64,000 bases of DNA from assembly GCA_944319945.1 (NCBI GenBank), contig CALUFN010000003.1:4101-68100 (forward strand), in the 5' to 3' direction. Below, piece by piece: positions 1,835 through 54,462 of this stretch (position 1 is its first letter; the number at the start of each line of letters is the position of its first letter). This stretch comes from an uncultured Prevotella sp. (GTDB taxonomy: Bacteria; Bacteroidota; Bacteroidia; Bacteroidales; Bacteroidaceae). The position numbers and the translations under genes are program-made. The notes under the pieces are model-generated. The model was not told where the DNA came from. It saw nothing but the letters and a program-made list of their open reading frames with translations, and did not search any database.

Positions 1835-2596
1835 ATGGGAAAAATAATCGCATTAGCAAACCAAAAGGGCGGTGTGGGTAAGACCACGACCACTATTAAT
1901 TTGGCGGCTTCGCTCGCAACATTGGAGAAAAAGGTTCTGGTAATCGATGCCGACCCGCAGGCCAACGCCTCGAGTGGCCTGGGTGTCAACACGAAAGACA
2001 TAGACTGCACTTTGTATGAATGTATTATAGACAACGCCGACGTGCACGATGCCGTCTACACGACCGACATAGACGGGCTGGACATAATCCCCAGCCACAT
2101 CGACCTCGTGGGCGCAGAGATCGAAATGCTTAATATCGAGCATAGGGAACAGGTGATAAAAAACTTGCTTGCTCCGATAAGGAATGATTACGACTTCATA
2201 CTGATTGACTGTTCGCCGTCGCTCGGCTTAATCACCGTGAATGCGCTGACCGCCGCCAATTCGGTGATAATCCCGGTGCAGTGTGAGTATTTCGCGCTCG
2301 AAGGTATAAGCAAATTGCTCAATACCATAAAGATAATCAAAAGCAAACTCAATCCGAAACTTGAGATAGAAGGATTCTTGCTGACGATGTATGACAGCCG
2401 ACTGAAACTGGCCAACCAAATATACGACGAGGTGAAACGCCACTTCCAGGAGCTTGTCTTCAAGACGGTGATACAGCGTAATGTCAAGCTGAGCGAATCG
2501 CCGAGCCACGGCCTGCCGGTAATACTTTATGATGCAGACTCGACCGGAAGTAAAAACCACTTGGCTTTGGCGAAAGAGATAATTAATAAAAATTAG
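1835..2596 (+). CDS. parA: Chromosome partitioning ATPase ParA/Soj
   Basis: MGKIIALANQKGGVGKTTT deviant Walker A, IDADPQ, DCSPSLG. Likely start is ATG 1835 within ORF 1793-2596. Confidence 0.97.
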   Translation: MGKIIALANQKGGVGKTTTTINLAASLATLEKKVLVIDADPQANASSGLGVNTKDIDCTLYECIIDNADVHDAVYTTDIDGLDIIPSHIDLVGAEIEMLNIEHREQVIKNLLAPIRNDYDFILIDCSPSLGLITVNALTAANSVIIPVQCEYFALEGISKLLNTIKIIKSKLNPKLEIEGFLLTMYDSRLKLANQIYDEVKRHFQELVFKTVIQRNVKLSESPSHGLPVILYDADSTGSKNHLALAKEIINKN

Positions 2597-2733
2597 GTCG
2601 TAAGGTCGTGAATATGTCCGATACGGTCGTGCGTGGAGCTGACACGTTGGTGTTTAGCTCGAGGTGCCTAAATTTATGCCGAGACCGTGAACGACAGCAG
2701 GACCGTATTACCTTATAATTTCACATAATCGAC

Positions 2734-3633
2734 ATGGCAGTAAAAAAGAGATATGGCAACGCTCTCGGGCGCGGACTTGACGCTTTGATTTCCACCGACG
2801 AGGTGCGCCCGCAGGGTAGTTCGACGATAAATGAGATTCCGATAGAACAAATTGAGGCCAACCCCAACCAGCCTCGCCGTGAGTTCGACCAAAATGCGCT
2901 TCAGGAACTGGCAAACAGCATACGCGAGATAGGCATAATACAGCCGATAACCTTGCGCCAGATTGAGGTGAACCGATTCCAGATAATAGCCGGCGAACGC
3001 CGGTGGAGGGCTTCTCAGATGGCGGGCTTGAGGGCAATTCCGGCCTACATCCGTACTATTAAGGATGAGAACATAATGGAAATGGCTCTCGTCGAGAACA
3101 TCCAGCGTGAAGACCTTAACGCAATAGAGATAGCTTTGGCGTATGAGCATTTGATGTCAAGCACCGGGATGACACAGGAGAAAGTGTCCGAGCGTGTAGG
3201 TAAGAGCCGTACCGCCATTGCCAACTATTTAAGATTGCTGAAGTTGCCGGCCCAAGTGCAGATGGCTCTGCAGAACAAGGAGATAGACATGGGGCACGCA
3301 CGTGCGCTGTTGGCCGTTGACAGTCCGTCGTTGCAGGTCAAGCTGTTTAAGGAGATACAAAAGAACGGATACTCCGTGCGCAAGGTTGAAGAGATGGTGC
3401 AGAAGTTGAAGAACGGCGAAGACATTGTAAGCGGAAAGAAGAAGATCGCGTCGAAGCAACAGATGCCTGAAGAGTTCACCGCCCTGAGGCAAAGGCTTTC
3501 TGACTTTTTCAGCACTCCGGTGCAGATGTCGTTTGCAGCCAACGGGAAAGGCAAGATAAGCATTCCGTTCTCGAATGAACAAGAGCTGGAACAAATAATA
3601 AATATGTTCGACAAACTGAAAGAACAGCAGTAA
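2734..3633 (+). CDS. parB: Chromosome partitioning protein ParB/Spo0J
   Basis: ALGRGLDALI N-terminus, NPNQPRREF, IIAGERRWRA, ENIQREDLN, HTH; follows parA. Confidence 0.97.
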   Translation: MAVKKRYGNALGRGLDALISTDEVRPQGSSTINEIPIEQIEANPNQPRREFDQNALQELANSIREIGIIQPITLRQIEVNRFQIIAGERRWRASQMAGLRAIPAYIRTIKDENIMEMALVENIQREDLNAIEIALAYEHLMSSTGMTQEKVSERVGKSRTAIANYLRLLKLPAQVQMALQNKEIDMGHARALLAVDSPSLQVKLFKEIQKNGYSVRKVEEMVQKLKNGEDIVSGKKKIASKQQMPEEFTALRQRLSDFFSTPVQMSFAANGKGKISIPFSNEQELEQIINMFDKLKEQQ

Positions 3634-8116: not shown

Positions 8117-8145
8117 AGGGAAATGGTAAAAAAGTAAAACCCCAC

Positions 8146-8210
8146 AACCGTATAACCTCAAACCGTATAACCTCAAACCGTATAACCTCAAACCCCTAAA
8201 ACCGTATAAC
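8146..8210 (+). repeat. Tandem repeat: 3 perfect copies of AACCGTATAACCTCA (8146-8190) plus a partial copy
   Basis: Read directly from the relA-pectinesterase spacer. Confidence 0.95.
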
Positions 8211-10220: not shown

Positions 10221-10440
10221 GTCTTATTCCTCCTTGATTTTAATGTTATATTTGCAAAGATACGATTTTTTCCTGTTCGTGCAATGATTTTATCGTAAAA
10301 TGTTATTTATCCGTCAAATATGATTTCGATTTGTACCCGTTACCGGCGGGCACTGATGCGTCAATATAAGGAAGAAGCCTATTATGTGGTTTATGCTTGA
10401 TTAACTTATTGATTTACAATGTTTTATGACGCGCCTTGCA

Positions 10441-10519
10441 AAAGGCCGCCTTTTGCCGTGTAAAAGGTAACCTTTCAGGCCGTAAAAGGTTGCCTTTGGC
10501 GTGGTTAATGGCAACCTTT
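10441..10519. repeat. 22-bp-phased palindrome array 1 (4 units)
   Basis: Units at 10441, 10463, 10485, 10507: AAAGGCCGCCTTT, AAAGGTAACCTTT, AAAGGTTGCCTTT, AATGGCAACCTTT. Confidence 0.9.
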
Positions 10520-16451: not shown

Positions 16452-16455
16452 TTAT

Positions 16456-16570
16456 ATGAATTAAGAATTATGAATTAAGAGTTTCAATATAATTAAGAAT
16501 TAAGAGTTGAGAATTAAGAAAATATGACTTGTTGGAAATTTTCTTAATTCTCAACTCTTAATTCTTAACT
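16456..16570. repeat. Heptamer-built palindrome (perfect 31-bp arms 16493-16523 / 16538-16568)
   Basis: TTAAGAATTAAGAGTTGAGAATTAAGAAAAT and its exact reverse complement, with further TAAGAAT/TGAAT units upstream. Confidence 0.92.
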
Positions 16571-16572
16571 TC

Positions 16573-17208
16573 CTAATATCCCAAATCCTCGCCCACTAAA
16601 ACTACGGTGTGGCGGCCTGCCGGGTGTGAGTTGCGCATGAAGTGGATGTAGTTGCAGATGCTCTCGGGCGAGTTGCAGTTATGGCATACGCCGTCGATTT
16701 GGCAGGGGGTCTTGATGTCGAAGCGGGCTGCGTTGATGGGGCTGGCCGTCGAGCGGGCGCGCGCCAGCGCGCTTTCCACGTCTTGCGTCACCTTGTTGAG
16801 GCCCACCACGAAGATTACGTTCTTAGGCCCGAAGGTGATGGCGGCCACGCGGTTGCCGTTGCCGTCGATGTTTACTATCACGCCGTCTTCGCTTATCGCG
16901 TTGACGCTCGAGAGGTAATAGTCGGCCGAGAACGCCTCGCGGTATATGCGTTGGGCCTCGTCGCGGTCGGCGGCCAGGTCGCGGTCTAATATGTTAAGGT
17001 TGCGCTTGTGCAGGGCCTCGGTCAGCCCCATGTCGCGTATGGTCATCGAGCCGCCCCACGTAACGCTGCTTCCGTCGGGTATCATCGCCGATATCTTAAT
17101 TACGGCCTCGGCCGCCGTTGGGCAGTATGTTGCGTTAAAGTTACGCCGTTGCAGGTTTTTTATCATCTTCTGCGCAAGGCGTTCGTTGCGCGTTTCCTTA
17201 GGTGTCAT
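16573..17208 (-). CDS. LUD-domain (LutC/YkgG-like) lactate utilization protein
   Basis: VTWGGSMT, NAISEDG, NIDGNGNRVAA, VVGLNK and C-terminal CHNC...C motifs. Confidence 0.85.
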   Translation of the reverse strand: MTPKETRNERLAQKMIKNLQRRNFNATYCPTAAEAVIKISAMIPDGSSVTWGGSMTIRDMGLTEALHKRNLNILDRDLAADRDEAQRIYREAFSADYYLSSVNAISEDGVIVNIDGNGNRVAAITFGPKNVIFVVGLNKVTQDVESALARARSTASPINAARFDIKTPCQIDGVCHNCNSPESICNYIHFMRNSHPAGRHTVVLVGEDLGY

Positions 17209-17324: not shown

Positions 17325-17403
17325 GGAGGCCTTCTTCTGCGTCGTAAAAGGTAACCTTTCGCGTTGCAATAGGTTACCTTTTACGATGCGAAAGGTAACC
17401 TTT
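17325..17403. repeat. 22-bp-phased palindrome array 2 (4 units)
   Basis: Units at 17325 (degenerate), 17347, 17369, 17391: AAAGGTAACCTTT, ATAGGTTACCTTT, AAAGGTAACCTTT. Confidence 0.9.
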
Positions 17404-20747: not shown

Positions 20748-21770
20748 ATGAAAAATCTGGATTGGGCAAATTTGTCTTTCGGCTATGTTCCGACAGACTA
20801 CAACGTCCGTTGCTACTATCGTGACGGTAAATGGGGCGAAATAGAAGTGTGCTCTGACGAATACATCAAGATGCACATGGCAGCCACGTGTCTGCATTAT
20901 GGTCAGGAGGCTTTCGAGGGTTTGAAGGCTTACCGCTGTCCTGACGGCAAGGTGCGCGTGTTCCGTATGGACGAGAACGCCGCCCGCCTGCAGAGCACAT
21001 GCCGCGGCATTCTCATGCCCGAGGTGCCTACTGAGCTTTTCGAGGAAATGGTTGCTAAGGTCGTACGCCTCAACCAAGACTACATACCGACTTACGAGAG
21101 CGGCGCTACGCTGTACATTCGCCCGCTGCTTGTGGGCATGTCTGCCCAAGTAGGAGTGCATCCGGCTTCCGAATACCTGTTCATGATATTCGTTACTCCC
21201 GTCGGTCCTTACTTCAAGGGCGGGTTTGCCGCTAATCCTTACGTCATCATTCGCGAGTACGACCGCTCCGCTCCGCTCGGTACGGGTATATATAAGGTGG
21301 GAGGAAACTACGCCGCTTCGTTGCGCGCAAACAAGATGGCGCACGACATGGGCTACGCTTGCGAGTTCTATCTCGACGCGAAGGAGAAGAAATACATGGA
21401 CGAGTGCGGCGCTGCCAACTTCTTCGGCATCAAGGACAACACCTACGTCACGCCGAAGTCTACAAGCATCTTGCCGAGCATTACCAACAAGAGCCTGATG
21501 CAGCTTGCCGAAGACATGGGCATGAAGGTGGAGCGCAGGCAGATTCCAGAGGAAGAGCTTGCCACGTTCGAGGAGGCCGGAGCCTGCGGCACGGCGGCCG
21601 TGATAAGCCCTATTTCAAAGATAGACGACCTTGAGGAGAAGAAGAGTTTCGTGATAAGCAAGGACGGAAAGCCCGGTCCGATATGCACGAAACTTTATAA
21701 TAAGCTGCGTAACATACAGTACGGCATTGAACCGGACGTGCACGGATGGACGAAAGTTGTAATCGAATAA
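20748..21770 (+). CDS. ilvE: Branched-chain amino acid aminotransferase
   Basis: LHYGQEAFEGLKAY, KVGGNYA, LPSITNKS and GACGTAAVISPI. Confidence 0.95.
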   Translation: MKNLDWANLSFGYVPTDYNVRCYYRDGKWGEIEVCSDEYIKMHMAATCLHYGQEAFEGLKAYRCPDGKVRVFRMDENAARLQSTCRGILMPEVPTELFEEMVAKVVRLNQDYIPTYESGATLYIRPLLVGMSAQVGVHPASEYLFMIFVTPVGPYFKGGFAANPYVIIREYDRSAPLGTGIYKVGGNYAASLRANKMAHDMGYACEFYLDAKEKKYMDECGAANFFGIKDNTYVTPKSTSILPSITNKSLMQLAEDMGMKVERRQIPEEELATFEEAGACGTAAVISPISKIDDLEEKKSFVISKDGKPGPICTKLYNKLRNIQYGIEPDVHGWTKVVIE

Positions 21771-21863
21771 GTTAGGATTTAAGAGTTAAGAATTAAGAAA
21801 ATCATCGTTCAAGCATACTTTCTTATATTCTTAACTCTTAACTTTTAACTCTTAATCTTAATT
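21771..21863. repeat. Heptamer-built palindrome between ilvE and trmB
   Basis: TTAAGAGTTAAGAATTAAGAAA (21779-21800) versus TTTCTTATATTCTTAACTCTTAA (21819-21841), plus extra units. Confidence 0.85.
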
Positions 21864-22643: not shown

Positions 22644-22748
22644 AAGGGTGGAAAGGTAAAAAAGTAAAAAGGTAAAAAAGTAAAACTGCATCACAGGATT
22701 TGAATGCTTTACTCTTTTACCTTTTTACTTTTTTACCTTTCCACCCTT
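22644..22748. repeat. Octamer-built (GGTAAAAA) palindrome with 41-bp arms and 1 mismatch, between convergent genes; likely bidirectional terminator
   Basis: Arms at 22644-22684 and 22708-22748. Confidence 0.9.
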
Positions 22749-22755
22749 TCACTTT

Positions 22756-23853
22756 TTATTTTATTTGTACGATCTTAGTGGGGCTTTGTTCCTTATTCCG
22801 CCTGTTGGTCATCGTCACCACGGCTTGGGCGAGATTGATAAACGCCTGGCCGGTAACGGTGCCTGCGTTGAGGGCCGACGGTGTGCCCGCATCGCCGCTT
22901 TCGCAGATGCTTTGCACCATCGGAATCTGCGCCAATAAGGGCAGGCCCATCTCTTTTGCAAGGTTTTTGCAGCCGTCTTTACCGAAGATATAATATTTGT
23001 TCTCAGGCAGTTCGGCCGGTGTAAACCAAGCCATGTTTTCTACAAGTCCGAGTATTGGCACGTTCACCTTGTCGTTCCTGTACATGTCTATGCCCTTGCG
23101 AGCGTCGGCAAGGGCCACCTTCTGCGGCGTGCTCACTATCACGGCACCCGTTATGGCCAGTGTTTGCAGCAGCGTGAGGTGGATGTCGCTCGTGCCGGGA
23201 GGCGTGTCAAGGATGAAATAGTCAAGGTCGCCCCAGTCGGCGTCGCCGATAAGCTGTTTCAGCGCGTTCGACGCCATGCCTCCCCTCCAAAGCGTGGCCG
23301 TGTCCGGATTGACGAAGAAACCGATGCTGAGCAGCCTCACTCCGTATTTCTCTATAGGCTCTATCAGGGCGCGTCCGTCCTTGTTCACGGCGTAAGGGCG
23401 AGCGTCCTCAACGTTGAACATCTTAGGCATCGACGGACCGAATATGTCAGTGTCTAATAGGCCCACCTTGTATCCCAATCGTGCCAGCGCGATGGCGAGG
23501 TTGGCCGCCACGGTGCTTTTGCCCACTCCGCCCTTGCCCGAGCTTACTGCTATGGTGTTTTTCACCCCCGGCAGCATCTTGCCCGGCTCGGGGCGCGGTT
23601 TTGATTTAGTCTCTACGGTAATCGTCACCTCTACGTCTTTGTTCACATGATAATGTATGGCCGCTTCCGCCGCTTTAATCGTCGACTTCATGAAGGGGTC
23701 GGTGTCGCGTGGGAATATCAGCGAGAACGACACCTTCATGCCGTCAATACGCATGTTGTCGGCTATCATTTCGCTTTCAACCAGATTCTTTTTCGTGCCG
23801 GGATACGTTACCGTAGCCAGCGCGTCTGTTATTAATTTAGGATATAGTGTCAT
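22756..23853 (-). CDS. mrp: Mrp/NBP35 (ApbC) Fe-S cluster carrier ATPase
   Basis: N-terminal DUF59-like region, SSGKGGVGKST, DTDIFGPS, DTPPGTSD and ENMA. Confidence 0.92.
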   Translation of the reverse strand: MTLYPKLITDALATVTYPGTKKNLVESEMIADNMRIDGMKVSFSLIFPRDTDPFMKSTIKAAEAAIHYHVNKDVEVTITVETKSKPRPEPGKMLPGVKNTIAVSSGKGGVGKSTVAANLAIALARLGYKVGLLDTDIFGPSMPKMFNVEDARPYAVNKDGRALIEPIEKYGVRLLSIGFFVNPDTATLWRGGMASNALKQLIGDADWGDLDYFILDTPPGTSDIHLTLLQTLAITGAVIVSTPQKVALADARKGIDMYRNDKVNVPILGLVENMAWFTPAELPENKYYIFGKDGCKNLAKEMGLPLLAQIPMVQSICESGDAGTPSALNAGTVTGQAFINLAQAVVTMTNRRNKEQSPTKIVQIK

Positions 23854-23944: not shown

Positions 23945-24046
23945 TAAGGCTGTATGGCGCATTTCCAAAAGGTGTCCTTTTGCCTTGTGAAAGGTAACCT
24001 TTTGCCTCCTGAAAGGTTACCTTTTGCAGCCTAAAAGGTGGCATTT
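23945..24046. repeat. 22-bp-phased palindrome array 3 (4-5 units)
   Basis: Units at 23968, 23990, 24012, 24034 (AAAGGTGTCCTTT, AAAGGTAACCTTT, AAAGGTTACCTTT, AAAGGTGGCATTT), plus a degenerate unit at 23945. Confidence 0.9.
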
Positions 24047-24384
24047 TGCAATCCGCTCGGGCACGCGTGCCGCCTTGAGTCCGTATGTCGTTGACTTTCA
24101 GTGAGGAACGAATGCAATCCGGTCGGCATTCTGACGCGACTTGGCGGCTCCCCGCCCGGCCGGGGCGCGTGGGCGGATGAAAACCCGGACATTTGCTCGC
24201 GTGAAAATGAAACGATGGCGGCCGTTTGTCATGTTTTTATCAAAAAACATAGATTGGAATGCGTTTTTATCGGTAAAATTTGTTATATTTGCACCTCGTA
24301 AGCGAGACGTGGCCAATATGCGGCTTGCATGTTTACCGCGCTGGCGTTGCAGGGAATCTAATTAAAGTATAAACACTAAATTTT

Positions 24385-27113: not shown

Positions 27114-27159
27114 AAGGCCGCGTGGCTTACATGCCGCGGTTACAGAATGATTGTGTGTC

Positions 27160-27846
27160 ATGGTAGCTTCTTCGGTCGATATGGAGAGCTTCGTGCTCGA
27201 AAACGGCTTTATGCCGTTCTTCTCCTGCGGAATACCCGGATTCTCGATAGAAGAGAATACGCCGGCGGAATTGTGGTTTTCGGCCGACGACGACGGCCCG
27301 TGGGAGTGGAAGGGTCCGGTGATACGTGAGGGGCATTGCGCCTACGGCAAGATGTTCTGTCGTAAGGCCGGCTTCGTAAGCCTTGAGTGGCTGCCCGACA
27401 TGATTAATTACCGCCGCTCGAAGCGTTACGCTAAAGACGACGACACCGCCGCGCTCGACGACGCAGTGCTGCAAACCATAATGTCGGAAGGCGGCGCCAC
27501 GGTGAAAGAGCTGCGCCGCATGCTCGGCTTTGTCAAGGGCAGGGGGCGGCGCGCCGACTGCGGCCTTGTAGACAGCATGCCTGATTGCGGCAAGGTGTCG
27601 CTTGAGTCTATCCTCACGCGGCTTATGATGAGCATGCGTGTGGTGATATCCGATTTCGAGTATAACATCGACAGGCACGGCAATCCCTACGGTTGGGGCG
27701 TGGCCCGTTATGCCTTACCCGAGACCCTGTACGGCCGTCTTGACGTGAGACGCACGCCCGAAGAGTCGTTTGACAGGATATGCAGCCACCTGGCCCGAAG
27801 GCTGCCTTCGGTGGCCGAAGATAAGATAATAAGGCTCGTAGGCTGA
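27160..27846 (+). CDS. AlkZ-related / HTH_42-like hypothetical protein
   Basis: GFMPFF, GPWEWKG, AYGKMF...GFVSLEW...YRR and YGWGVARY resemble AlkZ-related Bacteroidales proteins; start uncertain. Confidence 0.6.
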   Translation: MVASSVDMESFVLENGFMPFFSCGIPGFSIEENTPAELWFSADDDGPWEWKGPVIREGHCAYGKMFCRKAGFVSLEWLPDMINYRRSKRYAKDDDTAALDDAVLQTIMSEGGATVKELRRMLGFVKGRGRRADCGLVDSMPDCGKVSLESILTRLMMSMRVVISDFEYNIDRHGNPYGWGVARYALPETLYGRLDVRRTPEESFDRICSHLARRLPSVAEDKIIRLVG

Positions 27847-27904
27847 CCTTGTGTTGCGCCAGTCGTAAGTAGCTTGCAGTCAGGCTATTGCCGCAGGCCT
27901 TCTG

Positions 27905-27983
27905 GCTTGCCGCCTTTTACGCTGCAATATGCCGCATATTGCAGCGTAAAAGGTATCTTTTTACAGGCCGAAAGGCGGCCTTT
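27905..27983. repeat. 22-bp-phased palindrome array 4 (4 units, 2 degenerate), containing a perfect 19-bp-arm hairpin
   Basis: Units at 27905, 27927, 27949, 27971; CCTTTTACGCTGCAATATG-CCG-CATATTGCAGCGTAAAAGG. Confidence 0.8.
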
Positions 27984-28125
27984 TACATTGGGGCGGTCGG
28001 CTGCGCGCCTGCATCCAGATAACCGCTTGCAGATGAAAATAAAAGTTCGTTTCTTCGGCTTTTATTTTGTTTTTCGCCCGACTTGCACTATCTTTGCAGC
28101 GCAAAACGGAAATCATAAAGTAAAA

Positions 28126-28161
28126 ATGGACGATTATCACGCGGAGAAAATGAAATTGTAG
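28126..28161 (+). CDS. Putative 11-aa leader peptide upstream of corA (MDDYHAEKMKL)
   Basis: A-rich initiation region, about 30 nt downstream of the -7 box TATCTTTG (28089), followed by a hairpin. Confidence 0.4.
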   Translation: MDDYHAEKMKL

Positions 28162-28228: not shown

Positions 28229-29155
28229 ATGAGAACATTCTGGAACACCAACAACGGATTGAAGCAGATCGGCGAATGGGAGCCGAACTGCTGGATACAA
28301 GTGACATGTCCCACCGAAGACGACCAGCGCTTGCTGGAGGAGGAATTTAAGATTCCCGATTATTTCCTTTCAGACATCAGCGATAACGACGAGCGTGCCC
28401 GCTACGAGTATGACGACGGCTGGATGCTCATCATCCTGCGCATACCCTTCGTTAAGGAGATACGCTCGCGCACGCCTTACACCACCGTGCCGTTGGGCAT
28501 CATACACAAGCGCGACGTCACGATAACCGTATGCTTCCACGAGACCAACATGATGATAGACTTCGTGAGCTACCAGCAGAAGCGCGGCGAGGGCTTTACC
28601 GACTACGTAGACATGATATTCCGCCTGTTCCTTTCGTCGGCCGTGTGGTATCTTAAGCGTCTTAAGCAGATCAACAGTCTCATAGAGAAGGCCAAGCGCA
28701 ACCTCGACCGGGAGGTAAACAACGAGTCGCTCATCGGCCTTTCGCGCCTGCAAGACTCGCTTACATACTTCATCACGTCGATACGCGGCAACGAGAACCT
28801 GCTGGCAAAGCTGAAGTTCAAGCTGCAGGTGGACGAGCTCGACGCCGACCTTATAGAAGACGTCAACATCGAGATGAGCCAGGCGCGCGAGACCACCAAC
28901 ATATACTCTGACATTCTCGAGTCTACGATGGACACGTACTCGAGCATCATCAACAACAACATGAACACCGTGATGCGTACTCTTACGTCGGTATCCATCA
29001 TCCTGATGTTCCCCACGCTCATAGCCAGCATCTTCGGTATGAACCTGATCAACGGCATGGAACACAACAAGTTCGGCTTCCTTATCGCCATAGTCGTGTC
29101 GGCCATGATTTCAGGCATATCTTGGTGGATTTTCAGACACAAACGGCTCATTTAG
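28229..29155 (+). CDS. corA: Magnesium transporter CorA family
   Basis: NNNMNTVMRTLT, TM1 ending in the GMN signature (IFGMNL) and TM2. Confidence 0.93.
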   Translation: MRTFWNTNNGLKQIGEWEPNCWIQVTCPTEDDQRLLEEEFKIPDYFLSDISDNDERARYEYDDGWMLIILRIPFVKEIRSRTPYTTVPLGIIHKRDVTITVCFHETNMMIDFVSYQQKRGEGFTDYVDMIFRLFLSSAVWYLKRLKQINSLIEKAKRNLDREVNNESLIGLSRLQDSLTYFITSIRGNENLLAKLKFKLQVDELDADLIEDVNIEMSQARETTNIYSDILESTMDTYSSIINNNMNTVMRTLTSVSIILMFPTLIASIFGMNLINGMEHNKFGFLIAIVVSAMISGISWWIFRHKRLI

Positions 29156-35411: not shown

Positions 35412-36296
35412 ATGAGATTAGCGGCAATAGACATTGGTTCAAACGGAGCGCGACTGCTCATTAAGAACTTCAGGACTGCCCAAGACGGCAGCCAACAGAT
35501 TTCACGCGTGATGTACATGCGTGTCCCCCTGCGTTTAGGTTCCGACGTGTTCACGCTCGGAAAGATATCAAAGGAACGCGCGGTGATGATGAAGCACATG
35601 CTGAAGGCGTTTTACCAGCTGATGAAACTCAACTCGGTTGACGACTACCGCGCCTGCGCCACATCGGCCATGCGCGACGCCGAGAACGGCAAGAAGGTGC
35701 TCGACAAGCTGCGCAAGGCCACCGACATCGACATTGAGATAATCAACGGCCGCGAGGAGGCCCGTCTGCTGTGCAACAACATTGTGGAAAACATCGGCAG
35801 CGCAAGCGGCAATTACGCTTACATCGACGTGGGCGGAGGCAGCACGGAGATATCTCTGCTCCACGACGGGCAGCTCAGCCACAGTCACTCTTACAACATC
35901 GGTACGCTGAGGATGCTCGGCGGCATGGTGTCGAAAGAGACCGTGGAGAACATGAAGGCCGACCTTCGCCGATTCGCCCAAGACATGCCCGACGTGCGCA
36001 TGATAGGCTCCGGAGGCAACATCAACAAGCTCTTCAAACTCACCCACTCGGGCAAGGACCCGCGCGAGGTGACCATTGCCGAGATAAAGGATGTCTACGC
36101 CAAGCTCAAGCAGCTGAGCGTCGACGAGCGCATAGAGCAGTACGGCCTTAAGGCCGACCGCGCCGACGTGATCATTCCGGCGTCTGAGATATTCATGATA
36201 GTGGCCGACGCCCTCGGATGCGACAGTATACAGGTGCCTAACATCAGCTTGGCGGACAGCATCATCGACGGACTCTATCGCACGAAGTATGAATAA
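35412..36296 (+). CDS. ppx: Exopolyphosphatase Ppx/GppA (catalytic domain only)
   Basis: AAIDIGSN, ATSAMRDA, GREEA, DVGGGSTE and RADVI. Confidence 0.9.
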   Translation: MRLAAIDIGSNGARLLIKNFRTAQDGSQQISRVMYMRVPLRLGSDVFTLGKISKERAVMMKHMLKAFYQLMKLNSVDDYRACATSAMRDAENGKKVLDKLRKATDIDIEIINGREEARLLCNNIVENIGSASGNYAYIDVGGGSTEISLLHDGQLSHSHSYNIGTLRMLGGMVSKETVENMKADLRRFAQDMPDVRMIGSGGNINKLFKLTHSGKDPREVTIAEIKDVYAKLKQLSVDERIEQYGLKADRADVIIPASEIFMIVADALGCDSIQVPNISLADSIIDGLYRTKYE

Positions 36297-36428
36297 TTAA
36301 GAAAATGAATAATGAAAAATGAACAATGAAAAATCAGGGAATGAAAAACGAATAATCAGGATATGTGTTTCAGCTTGAACAAAGTCTAACCGGAATTTTT
36401 CATTGTTCAGTTTTAATTTTTCATTCGT
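36297..36428. repeat. AATGAAW heptamer-built imperfect palindrome after ppx
   Basis: AATGAAT/AATGAAA/AATGAAC units on the left and TTTTTCATTGTTCA...TTTTTCATTC on the right. Confidence 0.75.
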
Positions 36429-38289: not shown

Positions 38290-38368
38290 GAAGGCCGTGT
38301 TTTGCGCCCTGAAAGGCGGCAAATGGCACGATGAAAGGTTACCTTTTGCAAGCCCAAAGGCCGTCTTT
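38290..38368. repeat. 22-bp-phased palindrome array 5 (4 units)
   Basis: Units at 38290, 38312, 38334, 38356: GAAGGCCGTGTTT, AAAGGCGGCAAAT, AAAGGTTACCTTT, AAAGGCCGTCTTT. Confidence 0.85.
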
Positions 38369-38473
38369 TGGAACGTTGAGTGTAATAAGCTGACAGCCAG
38401 TGGGTTATGGCGCGTGGTGAAAAGCGCGTCCATAAGTCGTCTGAAATGCGGGAAGTGCCGTTAAATTACCTTC

Positions 38474-39819
38474 TCATTTTTTATGCGCATAGAACCACCA
38501 AGAGCTTATTGCTGCCGACGTCAGTATTTCCGCCAACGGCATGGAAAGCCAGATGCCTTCCGTTCCCAACAGCAATGGGAGCAGGATAAATACGGGTATA
38601 AGCAATCCTATTCCGCGTAAGAACACAAACGTCATGGCCGCTTTCATGCGTTCAATGCTCTGGCAATAGCCTACGATGGCGACATTCAGGATGAAGAACG
38701 GGATGCCTACGGCGTAATAGGGGAACCCGTCTTGTGCGATGCGGGCGGCCGTGCTGTCCGGATTCAGGAACAAGCCAACCAAAAGGTGAGGCACGAATAT
38801 GAAGAGAGCCGTTACGGCTATGCCGCACAACATGGAGGTGGCGATCAGCAGGCGGCGCGCCTTCGCCACATAGTCCCAACGCGATATGCCGTAATTGTAG
38901 CTGATAATAGGCTGTGCCGACTGGGCCACCGCATTACCTATGTTGAAGAAGAAAGGCGTATAGAGCAGGCAATGCCGAAGGCTGCCACGCCGTCGTCGCC
39001 CAAATGCCTCATGAACATGAGATTTCCCATAAAGATAAGCACCGCCAACGTCATTTCGCCCAGCAACGAAGGCGAGCCGATGCGGCAGTGGTAACCGATG
39101 TTGCGCAGGGAAAGGCGCAGGCTCTTCATGCTCAACTTCGGCATGACGGGGCTTAATGTCCGGGCGTAAAACAGCAGATAGGCAAGCGCGATGATTCCGC
39201 CGGTCATAATGCTGATGGAGGTGGCGACGGCCGCGCCTTTCACACCCCAGCCGAGCGGGAAAATCATAACCCAGTCAAGCACGATGTTCATCAGTGCCGA
39301 TACGACATTGCACCACATCGCGACTTTGGGCGCACCGTCCAAGCGGATGATGAACAGTCCGATGAGGCTCCACATCTGAAAGACATAGCTTGGCATTATC
39401 CAAAACAGGTAATCGCTTGCCAACGGAAGTAAAGTGTCTGACGATCCCAGCAGGCGTGCGGACCGGTCGGGAAATAACATGGCAAGCACGCATACCATGG
39501 CTGTCAGCAATGTGGAAAACAGCAGGGCTTGCGTCAGGTTCATTCGTGCAGCCTTTATTTTTTGCCTTGCCATGTGTATTGACACGACTACGGAACATCC
39601 GGCGCCAAGCATCAACCCGATGCCGGAAAACACCTGATATACGGGCCCGACAATATTTACGGCGGCGACGCCGTCGCTGCCCACGGCGTGCCCCACGAAG
39701 ATGCCGTCGATGGTAGTCATTGCCGACATGGACAACGTGCCCAGCAAGGTGGGAATCAGGAGTTTGCGGTACAAAGTGGAAACATTCGTGTTTTTGAAAT
39801 CAATTGCGTCTTTTGTCAT
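38474..39819 (-). pseudogene. MATE-family (MepA-like) efflux transporter split by a 1-nt frameshift near 38964
   Basis: N-part MTKDAIDF...DGIFVGHAVG...IRLDGAP...AFGIAC, C-part AQSAQPIISYNYG. Adding one base (TGC T[A]C TAT) gives continuous GIACYYTPFFFNIGNAVAQ. Confidence 0.85.
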
Positions 39820-39982
39820 TTCCTCATTCTTTAGTGTTAAGATCGTTTTGCGTTTGCAAAGATAGGGCGGTTTTGCCGTATAAGTGCATAATAATCCTGC
39901 CGGTAATGGTACTTTTCGATACAAATGCATTGATGTTAAAGCTAAAACCTCTATCTTTGCATAAGATTGTCAAAACAGCCTT

Positions 39983-50098: not shown

Positions 50099-50251
50099 TC
50101 TTATGCAAAGATAATGCCAGCGAGCGCAATGCAAGTTTACTTGTAAATTGCCGAGCGCAGCTTATCTTATCTAAAGATAATGCCAGTGAGCGCAATGCAA
50201 GTTTACTTGTAAATTGCCGAGCGCAGCTTGTCTTATGCAAAGATAATGCCA
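50099..50251 (-). repeat. 66-bp tandem repeat (2 full units + partial) upstream of lemA, each unit bounded by a -7 promoter box
   Basis: Units start at 50099, 50165 and 50231; TATCTTTG on minus at 50106-50113 and 50238-50245. Confidence 0.92.
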
Positions 50252-50417
50252 TTTGCCTGAATGTCATAGCTTTGTTAAGATTTAATTCAAATCTTTTTAT
50301 ATTTTATTCTTTTGCCGCTGTTCTTTTGCTTCACGGCTACTGTTGCGCATACGCTGCGGCGGCATGTACGGCATATGTTGGCACCTATCGTAACATGTTG
50401 ATTCATAATGTTTTATG

Positions 50418-50496
50418 AAAGGTTGCTTTTTACGTTGCAAAAGGTTGCCTTTTAGGCTGCAAAAGGTAACCTTTTACACGGCTTAAGGTAGTCTTT
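50418..50496. repeat. 22-bp-phased palindrome array 6 (4 units)
   Basis: Units at 50418, 50440, 50462, 50484: AAAGGTTGCTTTT, AAAGGTTGCCTTT, AAAGGTAACCTTT, TAAGGTAGTCTTT. Confidence 0.9.
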
Positions 50497-51033: not shown

Positions 51034-51492
51034 ATTATCCTGTTTATGGCACCTGGACATAAGTGAAAGTTGGATGTCCGCGACGTGCGGTTTGTGTGTA
51101 AAATAATGCTTAAACCGCGTCTGGATGCCAGTTGAAAACTACACGGATAGCGGCTTTCAAAACAAAAGAAGACTCACTATCCTCATCTTTTTACCGCTGC
51201 AAAGGTATGAAAAATTTACTTACCAGCCAAGCATTTTTCGCTTTTTTGAACATTTTAATATATTGATGGTGTTTTGTATGTCATTGGTAATCAATGGTTT
51301 AATGTTGTTTTGTGTAAAATGTTTTAAACTCGTTTAATCATCCCGTTTCAGTCGTTTAACACTGCTCTGATGGTGTTTTTGCGCATGTCTTCACGGTGTG
51401 GCAGGCCGTGTCGACGGTCCGCCAAGCCGCCGTTTTTCGTGCAATTCTTATCATGTGTTTTCCTGAAAATTGCATTTGTCAGGAAAATTCCT

Positions 51493-54376: not shown

Positions 54377-54462
54377 TTAATTAAGAGTTAAGAGTTAAGA
54401 AAATACGCCCTTGCGGCTTTCCTAACTCTTAATTCTTAACTATAAACTCTTAATTCTTAATT
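54377..54462. repeat. Heptamer-built palindrome between fabG and the pseudouridine synthase gene
   Basis: TTAAGAG x3 on the left and CTCTTAA/TTCTTAA units on the right. Confidence 0.85.

Follow-up and report, generated by a model that had tools for sequence, protein, structure and literature searches.

In Escherichia coli, repetitive extragenic palindromic (REP) sequences form clusters called bacterial interspersed mosaic elements (BIMEs), of which BIME-1 (RIP/RIB) has an IHF site and BIME-2 consists of alternating REPs. Canonical REP classes have a conserved 5' foot, GT[AG]G, and the classical REPs of E. coli are found mainly in 3' regions that are transcribed. Elements of the REP, BIME and REPIN (paired REP) kind are recognized by proteins both as a hairpin (RAYT) and as a duplex (IHF, gyrase). 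They are long-lived, specific to a lineage and located between genes in either orientation. Here we describe intergenic arrays of the palindromic core AAAGG-N3-CCTTT, repeated in 22-bp phase, in an uncultured Prevotella sp. The arrays were analyzed in a 64,000-nucleotide stretch of contig CALUFN010000003.1 (positions 4,101 to 68,100; hereafter the window) and in related genomes and metagenomes. Prevotellaceae are dominant gut and rumen bacteria for which few genetic tools exist and whose non-coding DNA is largely unexplored. We find that the arrays are built of two-unit inverted repeats and are dispersed in one clade, and we tentatively read them as a REP/BIME-like DNA element.

Other described systems of short repeats are relevant to the comparison. 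In Neisseria, the dRS3 repeat has the form ATTCCC-N8-GGGAAT, Neisseria intergenic mosaic elements (NIMEs) alternate dRS3 with RS units of 50-150 bp and variable length, and Correia elements have terminal inverted repeats together with a TA duplication, and an IHF site is also present in them. Plasmid iterons and the type II (ParR-parC) and omega-type centromeres consist of short repeats set one or two turns apart, with cooperative binding along a single face of the DNA; they occur once per replicon, beside their cognate genes. The parS palindrome is present in a few copies near the origin. Among the Bacteroidetes, genes of RAYT subclass 2.6 are flanked by atypical REPs with a foot of 3-5 nt, a stem of 8-10 bp and a loop of 3 nt (PMC6006769). 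The published list of subclass 2.6 REPs has no Prevotella entry and no sequence matching the array units (PMC6006769). In Porphyromonas gingivalis, BrickBuilt elements are composed of 23-nt direct repeats without spacers, with between 1 and 22.8 repeats in an element and 19 loci in a genome; they have leader and tail segments of up to ~300 nt and terminal inverted repeats like those of an insertion sequence (IS) (PMC4596501).

Six four-unit arrays in the window

The window (53% G+C) is part of a bacterial chromosome with housekeeping genes that include parA/parB, relA/spoT, a topoisomerase gene, xseA, ppk, corA and queD/E/F. Its GC skew is uniformly positive with no switch, and DNA near-identical to it is present in chicken-gut metagenomes. 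Allowing up to one mismatch, the window contains 19 copies of the core AAAGG-N3-CCTTT compared with 1.75 expected, and none of 100 shuffles reached 19. The core-to-core spacing is exactly 22 bp in 12 neighbouring pairs, with no other spacing of 100 bp or less. First-order Markov simulations (n=300) gave a mean of 1.8 cores and 0 pairs at 22 bp. When the sequence is printed in 22-bp phase, six four-unit runs are apparent, beginning at 10441, 17325/17347, 23968, 27905, 38290 and 50418. Tandem Repeats Finder reported a period of 22 at three of the six arrays. A profile hidden Markov model (HMM) built from 108 arrays of other genomes matched the window exactly six times, with E values from 1e-15 to 1e-22, and no array beyond these six was found in the 64 kb. 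The features are as follows, with z scores for folding as single-stranded DNA (ssDNA) where listed.

Array 1: 10441..10519, no strand; cores at 10441, 10463, 10485 and 10507; E 1.6e-21; ssDNA fold z -3.8
Array 2: 17325..17403, no strand; degenerate unit at 17325 and cores at 17347, 17369 and 17391; E 2e-18
Array 3: 23968..24046, no strand; cores at 23968, 23990, 24012 and 24034; E 9e-23; fold z -4.8
Array 4: 27905..27983, no strand; units at 27905 (degenerate), 27927 (ATATG...CATAT variant), 27949 and 27971; E 7.5e-17
Array 5: 38290..38368, no strand; degenerate units at 38290 and 38312, good units at 38334 and 38356; E 8e-18
Array 6: 50418..50496, no strand; cores at 50418, 50440, 50462 and 50484; E 7e-19

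These results bear out the initial annotation, made from the window alone, in that the arrays are real, intergenic and present at about one per 10 kb, far beyond chance. Its alternative start of array 3, at 23945, barely qualifies as a unit.

Unit anatomy and the 11-bp lattice

Unit spacings were counted in 191 related loci together with the window. A spacing of 22 bp was found in 330 cases, 21 bp in 33 and 44 bp in 15, and any other spacing between 14 and 27 bp in at most 5; the period first seen in the window is thus kept in other genomes. Four units is the modal size (111 of 169 arrays). In an unbiased 202-kb sample 18 of 24 arrays have four units, and solo units there are at about the level expected by chance.

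The profile of the 22-mer is g-Y-a-AAAGG-Y-S-R-CCTTT-t-R-c-a-n-t, with a preference for Y-S-R at the centre of the core. Half-site positions are 85-96% conserved, and the positions alongside them carry ~0 bits. The 9-bp linkers had been taken to vary freely, which the larger sample contradicts: the 22-mer has a pyrimidine at position 2 and a purine at position 18, each in 98% of units. Partial conservation of the linkers (T-R-C ... G-Y-A) thus makes each array an 11-bp lattice in which the 8-mer GYAAAAGG and its complement alternate in orientation, with 3-nt spacers between them. The A4/T4 tracts that recur every 11 bp, together with an IHF-like flanking motif (described below), suggest intrinsic bending.

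Two units form the evolving module

We analyzed covariation in an ungapped alignment of 108 four-unit arrays, with 500 shuffles as the control. When unit 1 is paired with unit 2 and unit 3 with unit 4, the covariation is 0.296, compared with 0.200±0.006 in shuffles, and 79.7% of positions are paired. No shuffle reached the score of this neighbour-pair structure on any of five measures, and all slid controls were beaten. Two other structures were rejected. For the 13-bp palindrome folding within a unit as the functional unit, the covariation is 0.185 versus 0.184 (reached by 229 of the 500 shuffles), and for the whole array as a single nested palindrome it is 0.207 versus 0.201 (61 of 500).

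Neighbour pairs have a paired centre base, uninformative by symmetry, in 65% of cases (CG 33, GC 27), compared with 32-38% in other registers. In pairs 1-2 and 3-4 the two centre triplets are each other's exact reverse complement in 48-49% of cases, compared with 13% in pair 2-3. Direct identity of the triplets is found in only 8-12%. Variants are compensated across units, for example AAAGACGGCCTTT/AAAGGCCGTCTTT and ATATGCGGCCTTT/AAAGGCCGCATAT. Since a base that deviates from the consensus finds its compensation in the adjacent unit and not within the unit itself, we conclude that the evolving module is an inverted repeat of two units, ~35 bp long, with arms of 13-16 bp and a centre of 3-9 nt. 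The normal array consists of two such modules with a 44-bp period.

That neighbouring units covary as inverted repeats points either to pairing as hairpins or cruciforms, or to an origin as palindromes. Among eight arrays folded as ssDNA, seven fold much better than shuffles (z from -2.9 to -8.0). Within the window, array 2 has a fold z of -6.8 with 17347 paired to 17369, array 4 contains a palindrome with a 19-bp stem centred on its unit 2 (z -6.2), and array 6 has a z of -2.9 with 50440 paired to 50462. The middle pair of array 3, TAA/TTA, is perfectly complementary, and in array 1 units 2 and 3, and units 3 and 4, are mutual near reverse complements. The fold of array 5 is no better than shuffles (z -0.2). 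The initial interpretation is thus supported in part: the near-invariant half-sites argue for sequence-specific protein recognition, but a dimeric protein bound to palindromic units does not fit the covariation, which is absent within the unit.

A dispersed repeat of one clade

One genome per species, 596 Gb in total, was scanned for two perfect units 22 bp apart. At least 111 loci were found, whereas fewer than one match to 20 specified bases would be expected by chance. Among the matches listed, 76 of 80 are in Prevotella, Prevotellaceae, Xylanibacter, Palleniella or Marseilla. A phage feature is ruled out by the single match in 2.9 million viral contigs. Array density was estimated from 80 metagenome loci orthologous to the corA region and not chosen for the presence of arrays, with the following values per 100 kb.

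Window: 9.4
Relatives with CorA 97-98% identical: 14.7
Relatives with CorA 93-94% identical: 7.5
Relatives with CorA 85-91% identical (other Prevotella): 0.29

This contrast in density between relatives indicates that the element was amplified in one clade of gut Prevotella. Extrapolation from the density gives a few hundred copies per genome of 3-4 Mb. No description of such a repeat family was found in the literature, and no Rfam family corresponds to it, so the earlier statement that no named element has this layout can be retained.

The initial annotation envisaged a repeat geometry with two-turn spacing, as in iterons and repeat centromeres. The arrays have this geometry, yet unlike those systems they are present in a few hundred chromosomal copies (extrapolated), have no adjoining cognate gene and show covariation of inverted neighbours. 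A centromere or condensin-loading site, also suggested there, has no support, given the same extrapolated number, which is far too high, and the absence of a parS-like site (TGTTNCACGTGAAACA, a 16-bp palindrome unrelated in sequence to the arrays, with up to 3 mismatches) from the 64 kb. Chromosomal parA and parB genes are located at 1835-3633, though no parS-like site accompanies them in the window.

The arrays resemble the NIME and Correia elements of Neisseria as abundant short palindromic repeats in intergenic arrays, and differ from them in the 22-bp lattice and the fixed four-unit size.

Flanking head and tail motifs

A 27-bp palindrome, here called the head (GTAAC-N2-GTTGA-N3-TCAAC-N2-GTTAC, in profile form GTAAC-nn-gTTGA-taa-TCAac-nn-GTTac), is present on one flank of 103 out of 161 arrays (~64%) and in 1 of 161 shuffled flanks. 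It starts 29, 40, 51 or 62 bp ahead of the first core, so the 11-bp register is kept. Heads accompany five of the six window arrays, two of them as moderate or weak matches to the position weight matrix (PWM); the PWM search detected none at array 2.

Head of array 1, TTAACTTATTGATTTACAATGTTTTAT: 10401..10427, no strand; PWM 21.3 bits; 40 bp before the first core (-40 offset class)
Head right of array 3: 24083..24109, no strand; moderate match, PWM 14.8/15.2 bits on the two strands
Head-like palindrome left of array 4: 27865..27891, no strand; weak match, PWM 12.8/13.7 bits
Tail-like motif near array 4: 28012..28036, minus strand; reverse complement TCATCTGCAAGCGGTTATCTGGATG
Head right of array 5, GTAATAAGCTGACAGCCAGTGGGTTAT: 38382..38408, no strand; PWM 22.9 bits
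Head of array 6, GTAACATGTTGATTCATAATGTTTTAT: 50390..50416, no strand; PWM 18.3 bits; abuts the first unit directly
Solo head without an array: 51276..51302, no strand; PWM 19.8 bits; in a divergent intergenic region

The coordinates of the initial annotation begin at 50391, a position that belongs to the head palindrome flanking array 6 (50390-50416). Heads without an array are common in the related loci, with 83 solo matches compared with ~8 by chance. At about ten times the chance level, the solo head is probably a binding site in its own right. Head positions TCAA-N4-TTA, on both strands, coincide with WATCAANNNNTTR, which we take to be the IHF consensus of E. coli. A perfect match to this presumed E. 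coli consensus is found in 30 of the 103 heads. No HU/IHF gene is present within the 64-kb window.

On the far side of the array, 4-6 nt from its end and usually opposite the head, a tail motif, TCATCCGCAAA-N3-GTTGGATGA, is convincing at ~12 of 160 arrays (loci L073, L075 and L102 among them). Head and tail are unrelated and are not inverted copies of each other.

[quoted passage not shown] The centre triplets TAA and TTA are compatible with a TNA target duplication, which is a property of some IS5-family elements. In addition, the half-unit CCTTTTGCA resembles the terminal repeat GAGACCTTTGCA of ISPg1/BrickBuilt in P. gingivalis, with 8 nt shared (PMC4596501); the stretch in common between this terminal repeat and the array unit is CCTTTGCA (PMC4596501). 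However, the 1.74 Mb of local sequence contains just 5 copies of GAGACCTTTGCA at up to one mismatch, none of them at an array, and no transposase-like partner, bounding terminal inverted repeats or target duplication was seen at the arrays. Head and tail, not being inverted copies, do not form such ends, decay would not yield the exact four-unit size and the 22-bp lattice, and a small sample of comparisons between relatives revealed no empty sites (see below). We therefore consider an origin from IS or MITE ends improbable. A MITE in the strict sense was rejected by its defining features, as the head is on one side only, the tail is rare and unrelated, and border duplications are absent.

BrickBuilt, like the arrays, is an intergenic tandem repeat with flanking segments in the order Bacteroidales (PMC4596501). 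The arrays differ in their period of 22, their four units in inverted pairs, their frequency of ~10 per 100 kb, the 27-bp palindromic head and the lack of terminal inverted repeats. Homology with BrickBuilt is not supported, given the period, the inverted pairs, the fixed number of four units and the absence of an ISPg1-type terminal repeat at the arrays.

Conservation and change between relatives

Arrays persist at orthologous sites between species whose flanks are only ~70% identical. At one site followed in three species (L011, L111 and L025) the arrays are 82-89% identical and unchanged in length, and other orthologous pairs are up to 100% identical. In these three arrays (L011:4951, L111:955 and L025:6523), the unit that is exactly reverse-complementary to unit 1 is unit 2 in one species but unit 3 in the remaining two. 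The two-base change among them looks like templated conversion between units and not like point mutation.

A related strain (metagenome run X10) lacks 44 bp, one module, in array 4 (27915-27958), with 27914 joined to 27959. Between strains that are >95% identical, in a small sample, the only internal changes are of 44 bp and possibly of 22 bp. Each genome has preferred unit types, such as GGCCACC/GACGGCC, GGACTCC or GGGCCCC/GGAACCC, and the window favours GGTAACC. The recurrence of linker 9-mers does not exceed that in column shuffles. The assembly graph of Palleniella muris contains one perfect 35-bp module in ~3 copies with different flanks. Synteny among the relatives is broken upstream of corA.

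Genomic context

In the window three arrays are in divergent and three in tandem contexts, and all six are upstream of at least one gene. They adjoin genes for a DUF6249 protein, an S8 peptidase, a LUD-domain protein, an Mrp/NBP35-type ATPase (Pfam ParA family), CorA, a thioredoxin-like protein, MatE, LemA and an SLT transglycosylase. In agreement with the initial annotation, no cognate gene is visible among the window open reading frames (ORFs). Across 115 classified arrays, 34 are in ++, 30 in -+, 27 in -- and 24 in +- contexts, close to the shares of intergenic length, and the orientation of the array (by its head) relative to genes has no bias. The suggestion that arrays lie upstream of promoters thus describes the six window copies and fails for the family, in which 24 of 115 are between convergent genes. 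A promoter association was rejected on these grounds, contexts following intergenic length and 21% being convergent. The Bacteroidetes -7 box, TAnnTTTG, is absent from the units on inspection.

Operator arrays of a single transcription factor that controls a regulon would fit the position of all six window copies upstream of a gene, but the flanking genes are functionally unrelated. With the convergent arrays and a few hundred copies per genome (extrapolated) also against it, we regard this explanation as very improbable.

The strong hairpin potential, with stems preceded by runs of A and followed by runs of U, could also indicate elements that act in transcripts through their two-unit hairpins, as bidirectional terminators, stabilizing hairpins of 3' untranslated regions or a family of small RNAs. 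In tandem contexts the 3' end of the upstream gene is nearer to the array (median 80-108 bp) than the start of the downstream gene (178-250 bp), which would agree with such a role. A thin metatranscriptome (X24) covers the window, and one contig from the AlkZ-related ORF 27151-27846 (PF24741) ends at the edge of array 4. Against this, Rfam has no match at the arrays either at the gathering threshold or at E<=1, 26% of arrays are between divergent genes in random orientation, and gene ends in the window already bear separate hairpins. The mismatches in the helices do not have the expected asymmetry: on the head-oriented strand, G·T and A·C are equally frequent (169 vs 166). Where the neighbouring genes are in tandem (54 four-unit arrays), their sense strand has more A·C than G·T at the helix positions of the module (195 vs 144, p=0.0065), the reverse of an RNA helix or of the usual leading-strand skew. 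A strand-specific RNA helix was rejected on these counts and on the unbiased orientation. In agreement with the initial annotation, an RNA structure is disfavoured, as G·T is not above A·C in either strand orientation, and an RNA-level element is quite improbable. Palleniella muris runs of doubtful RNA origin behave as DNA, with flat depth and long contigs.

A REP/BIME-like element as the preferred reading

Two lines of evidence are combined in elements of the REP, BIME and REPIN kind. Near-invariant half-sites beside randomized positions, in an old and diverged population of copies, point to sequence-specific recognition and favour a protein that reads the duplex. Register-specific complementarity that extends to off-consensus bases points to modules that were born as, and partly kept as, palindromes capable of forming hairpins or cruciforms. 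Because half-site recognition and inverted pairing occur together in that kind, we class the array as REP/BIME-like. Our preferred reading, to which we give a probability of about 0.45, is that the arrays are a clade-specific dispersed DNA repeat of Prevotellaceae of the REP/BIME type, recognized by protein as a duplex or as extruded hairpins. By analogy the element would behave like a REP/BIME, and its membership in the RAYT-associated families is a candidate assignment only.

Under this reading the element would act on DNA rather than through a strand-specific RNA. One or more sequence-specific proteins would read the head and the conserved 8-mers, and the two-unit modules would arise, and in part be kept, as hairpin or cruciform palindromes. 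Their source may be either a RAYT/HUH-type enzyme that recognizes single-strand hairpins or template-switch repair of quasi-palindromes. The A4/T4 tracts 11 bp apart and the IHF-like head could together make a bent, protein-loaded and structure-prone intergenic landmark, analogous to the BIME/RIP of E. coli.

The likeness to E. coli BIMEs is considerable. Both are abundant, intergenic, orientation-free short imperfect palindromes that alternate at fixed spacing; one class of BIMEs has an adjoining IHF-type site, to which the head may be comparable; and copy number varies by modules between strains. Alternating orientation, fixed spacing, intergenic location and a variable number of modules are thus all found in the arrays, yet the number of modules is strongly fixed at two (four units). 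In contrast to BIMEs, the arrays have no sequence similarity to them and no GTAG foot, their 8-bp arms are A/T-rich and placed on a strict 11/22-bp lattice, they are quantized at four units with practically no solo units, they are as frequent in divergent promoter regions as elsewhere, and the local loci contain no RAYT partner, by a weak test.

REPIN/RAYT systems share with the arrays an inverted doublet, forming a long hairpin, as the functional module (PMC6006769; PMC3116915). They also share genome-specific sequence types, and vertical inheritance with orthologous persistence (PMC6006769; PMC3116915). One 22-bp unit has the same geometry as the subclass 2.6 REPs, with unrelated sequence (PMC6006769). 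The array hairpins have no GTAG, and the conserved flanking bases g-Y-a / t-R-c could act as a foot. The arrays differ in having few identical copies, and a search of the window and 1.74 Mb of local loci gave no RAYT gene.

Several observations weigh against the REP/BIME-like reading. Six-frame ORFs from 1.74 Mb of related loci, scanned for motifs, included no RAYT/HUH gene, and Pfam annotation of ~50 window ORFs found no HUH/Y1 domain (PF01797). Both tests are weak because such genes are single-copy per genome. In 28 flank-matched comparisons, a small sample, there was no empty site and no gain or loss between relatives. Copies are mostly unique at variable positions, with 25-mers of unit, linker and unit rarely shared, and array 6 is close to unique in the metagenome it comes from, where the assembler passes it with a single branch; the copies are not an actively copying population. 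In some arrays (for example L033 and L120-L122) units are direct and not inverted. About a quarter of the arrays are found between divergent genes, the likeness of the head to an IHF site depends on the presumed E. coli consensus, and the strict four-unit quantization and absence of solo units are unlike REPs. The lattice and quantization features make the array family distinct from an ordinary REP family and, together with the divergent contexts and few identical copies, keep an architectural binding array as a serious rival.

This rival, in essence a refinement of the initial proposal, is a pure duplex binding array, in which a Prevotellaceae-specific protein would bind GYAAAAGG and polymerize head-to-head and tail-to-tail on one helix face along the 11-bp lattice, perhaps with nucleation or bending by another protein at the head. 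In that case the arrays would be landmarks of the host nucleoid or its topology, never mobile, and the inverted-repeat covariation a residue of how they originated. Such an array would account for half-sites that are 85-96% conserved beside neighbours of ~0 bits in copies that are not recent duplicates, for 11-bp quantization that reaches the head offsets, and for a unit number fixed at four. The strictly intergenic and orientation-independent placement, the persistence at orthologous sites and the tenfold excess of solo heads (83 vs ~8), as for an independent binding site, also agree with it. However, a reader of half-sites gives no cause for unit 1, in its centre triplet and its off-consensus bases, to be reverse-complementary to unit 2 and not to unit 3. 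Preferred centre sequences vary by genome. Identical 35-bp modules at several loci of one genome suggest copying, and no candidate protein emerged from the analysis. We consider this explanation somewhat unlikely. More specifically, the arrays may be docking sites of a Prevotellaceae nucleoid-structuring system, in which a fixed-size oligomer would occupy eight half-sites on ~88 bp of bent DNA, nucleated or placed by a bending protein at the 27-bp head; this proposal is rather unlikely. If it were true, docking sites at a few hundred per genome would be a quantized architectural element without a counterpart of the REP, BIME, parS, matS or SBS type.

Neighbouring observations

Gene ends in the window carry hairpins of another kind, at 8126-8210, 16455-16577, 21770-21861, 22652-22758, 36289-36425 and 54381-54462. 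Their arms are opposed tandem repeats of 7-8 bp, for example (GAATTAA)n ... (TTCTTAA)n, with weak Rfam matches of the miRNA-precursor type. Related loci (L171-L188) have the arrangement (GTAAAAA)n - GC hairpin - (TTTTTAC)n downstream of genes. These repeat-armed hairpins are probably the local form of intrinsic terminator, though the arms are unusual.

Beside array 6, a 66-bp tandem repeat at 50099-50251 has 2.3 copies that are 93% identical, with an inner period of 31 bp. Its k-mers reach ~3-28 times the local metagenome depth, which indicates another multi-copy family. The leader of corA (28229-29155) contains a conserved upstream ORF of 11 codons, MDDYHAEKMKL*, at 28126-28161. Of 80 orthologous loci, 70 have a version of it, MDDYHAE[NK]xxL, with a conserved GGAGG-rich stretch after it, and no Rfam family matched the region. 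The upstream ORF may be a leader-peptide or attenuation device for this Mg2+ channel gene. The MatE efflux gene beside array 5 (minus strand, 38474-39930) is divided into two ORFs, 38938-39930 and 38474-38929; a frameshift, a pseudogene or an assembly error is possible.

Significance

The arrays have practical consequences for work on these genomes. Short-read assemblies are broken by them, with contigs that end or branch inside, and they may confound searches for motifs and promoters. The variation in 44-bp modules between strains makes them possible typing markers. For the biology of the Prevotellaceae, the regularity of the arrays (11-bp lattice, four units, phased head) provides a clean entry point to the question of how these genomes organize or process their intergenic DNA, and to whether REP-like elements outside the Proteobacteria are selfish replicators, host architecture, or both.

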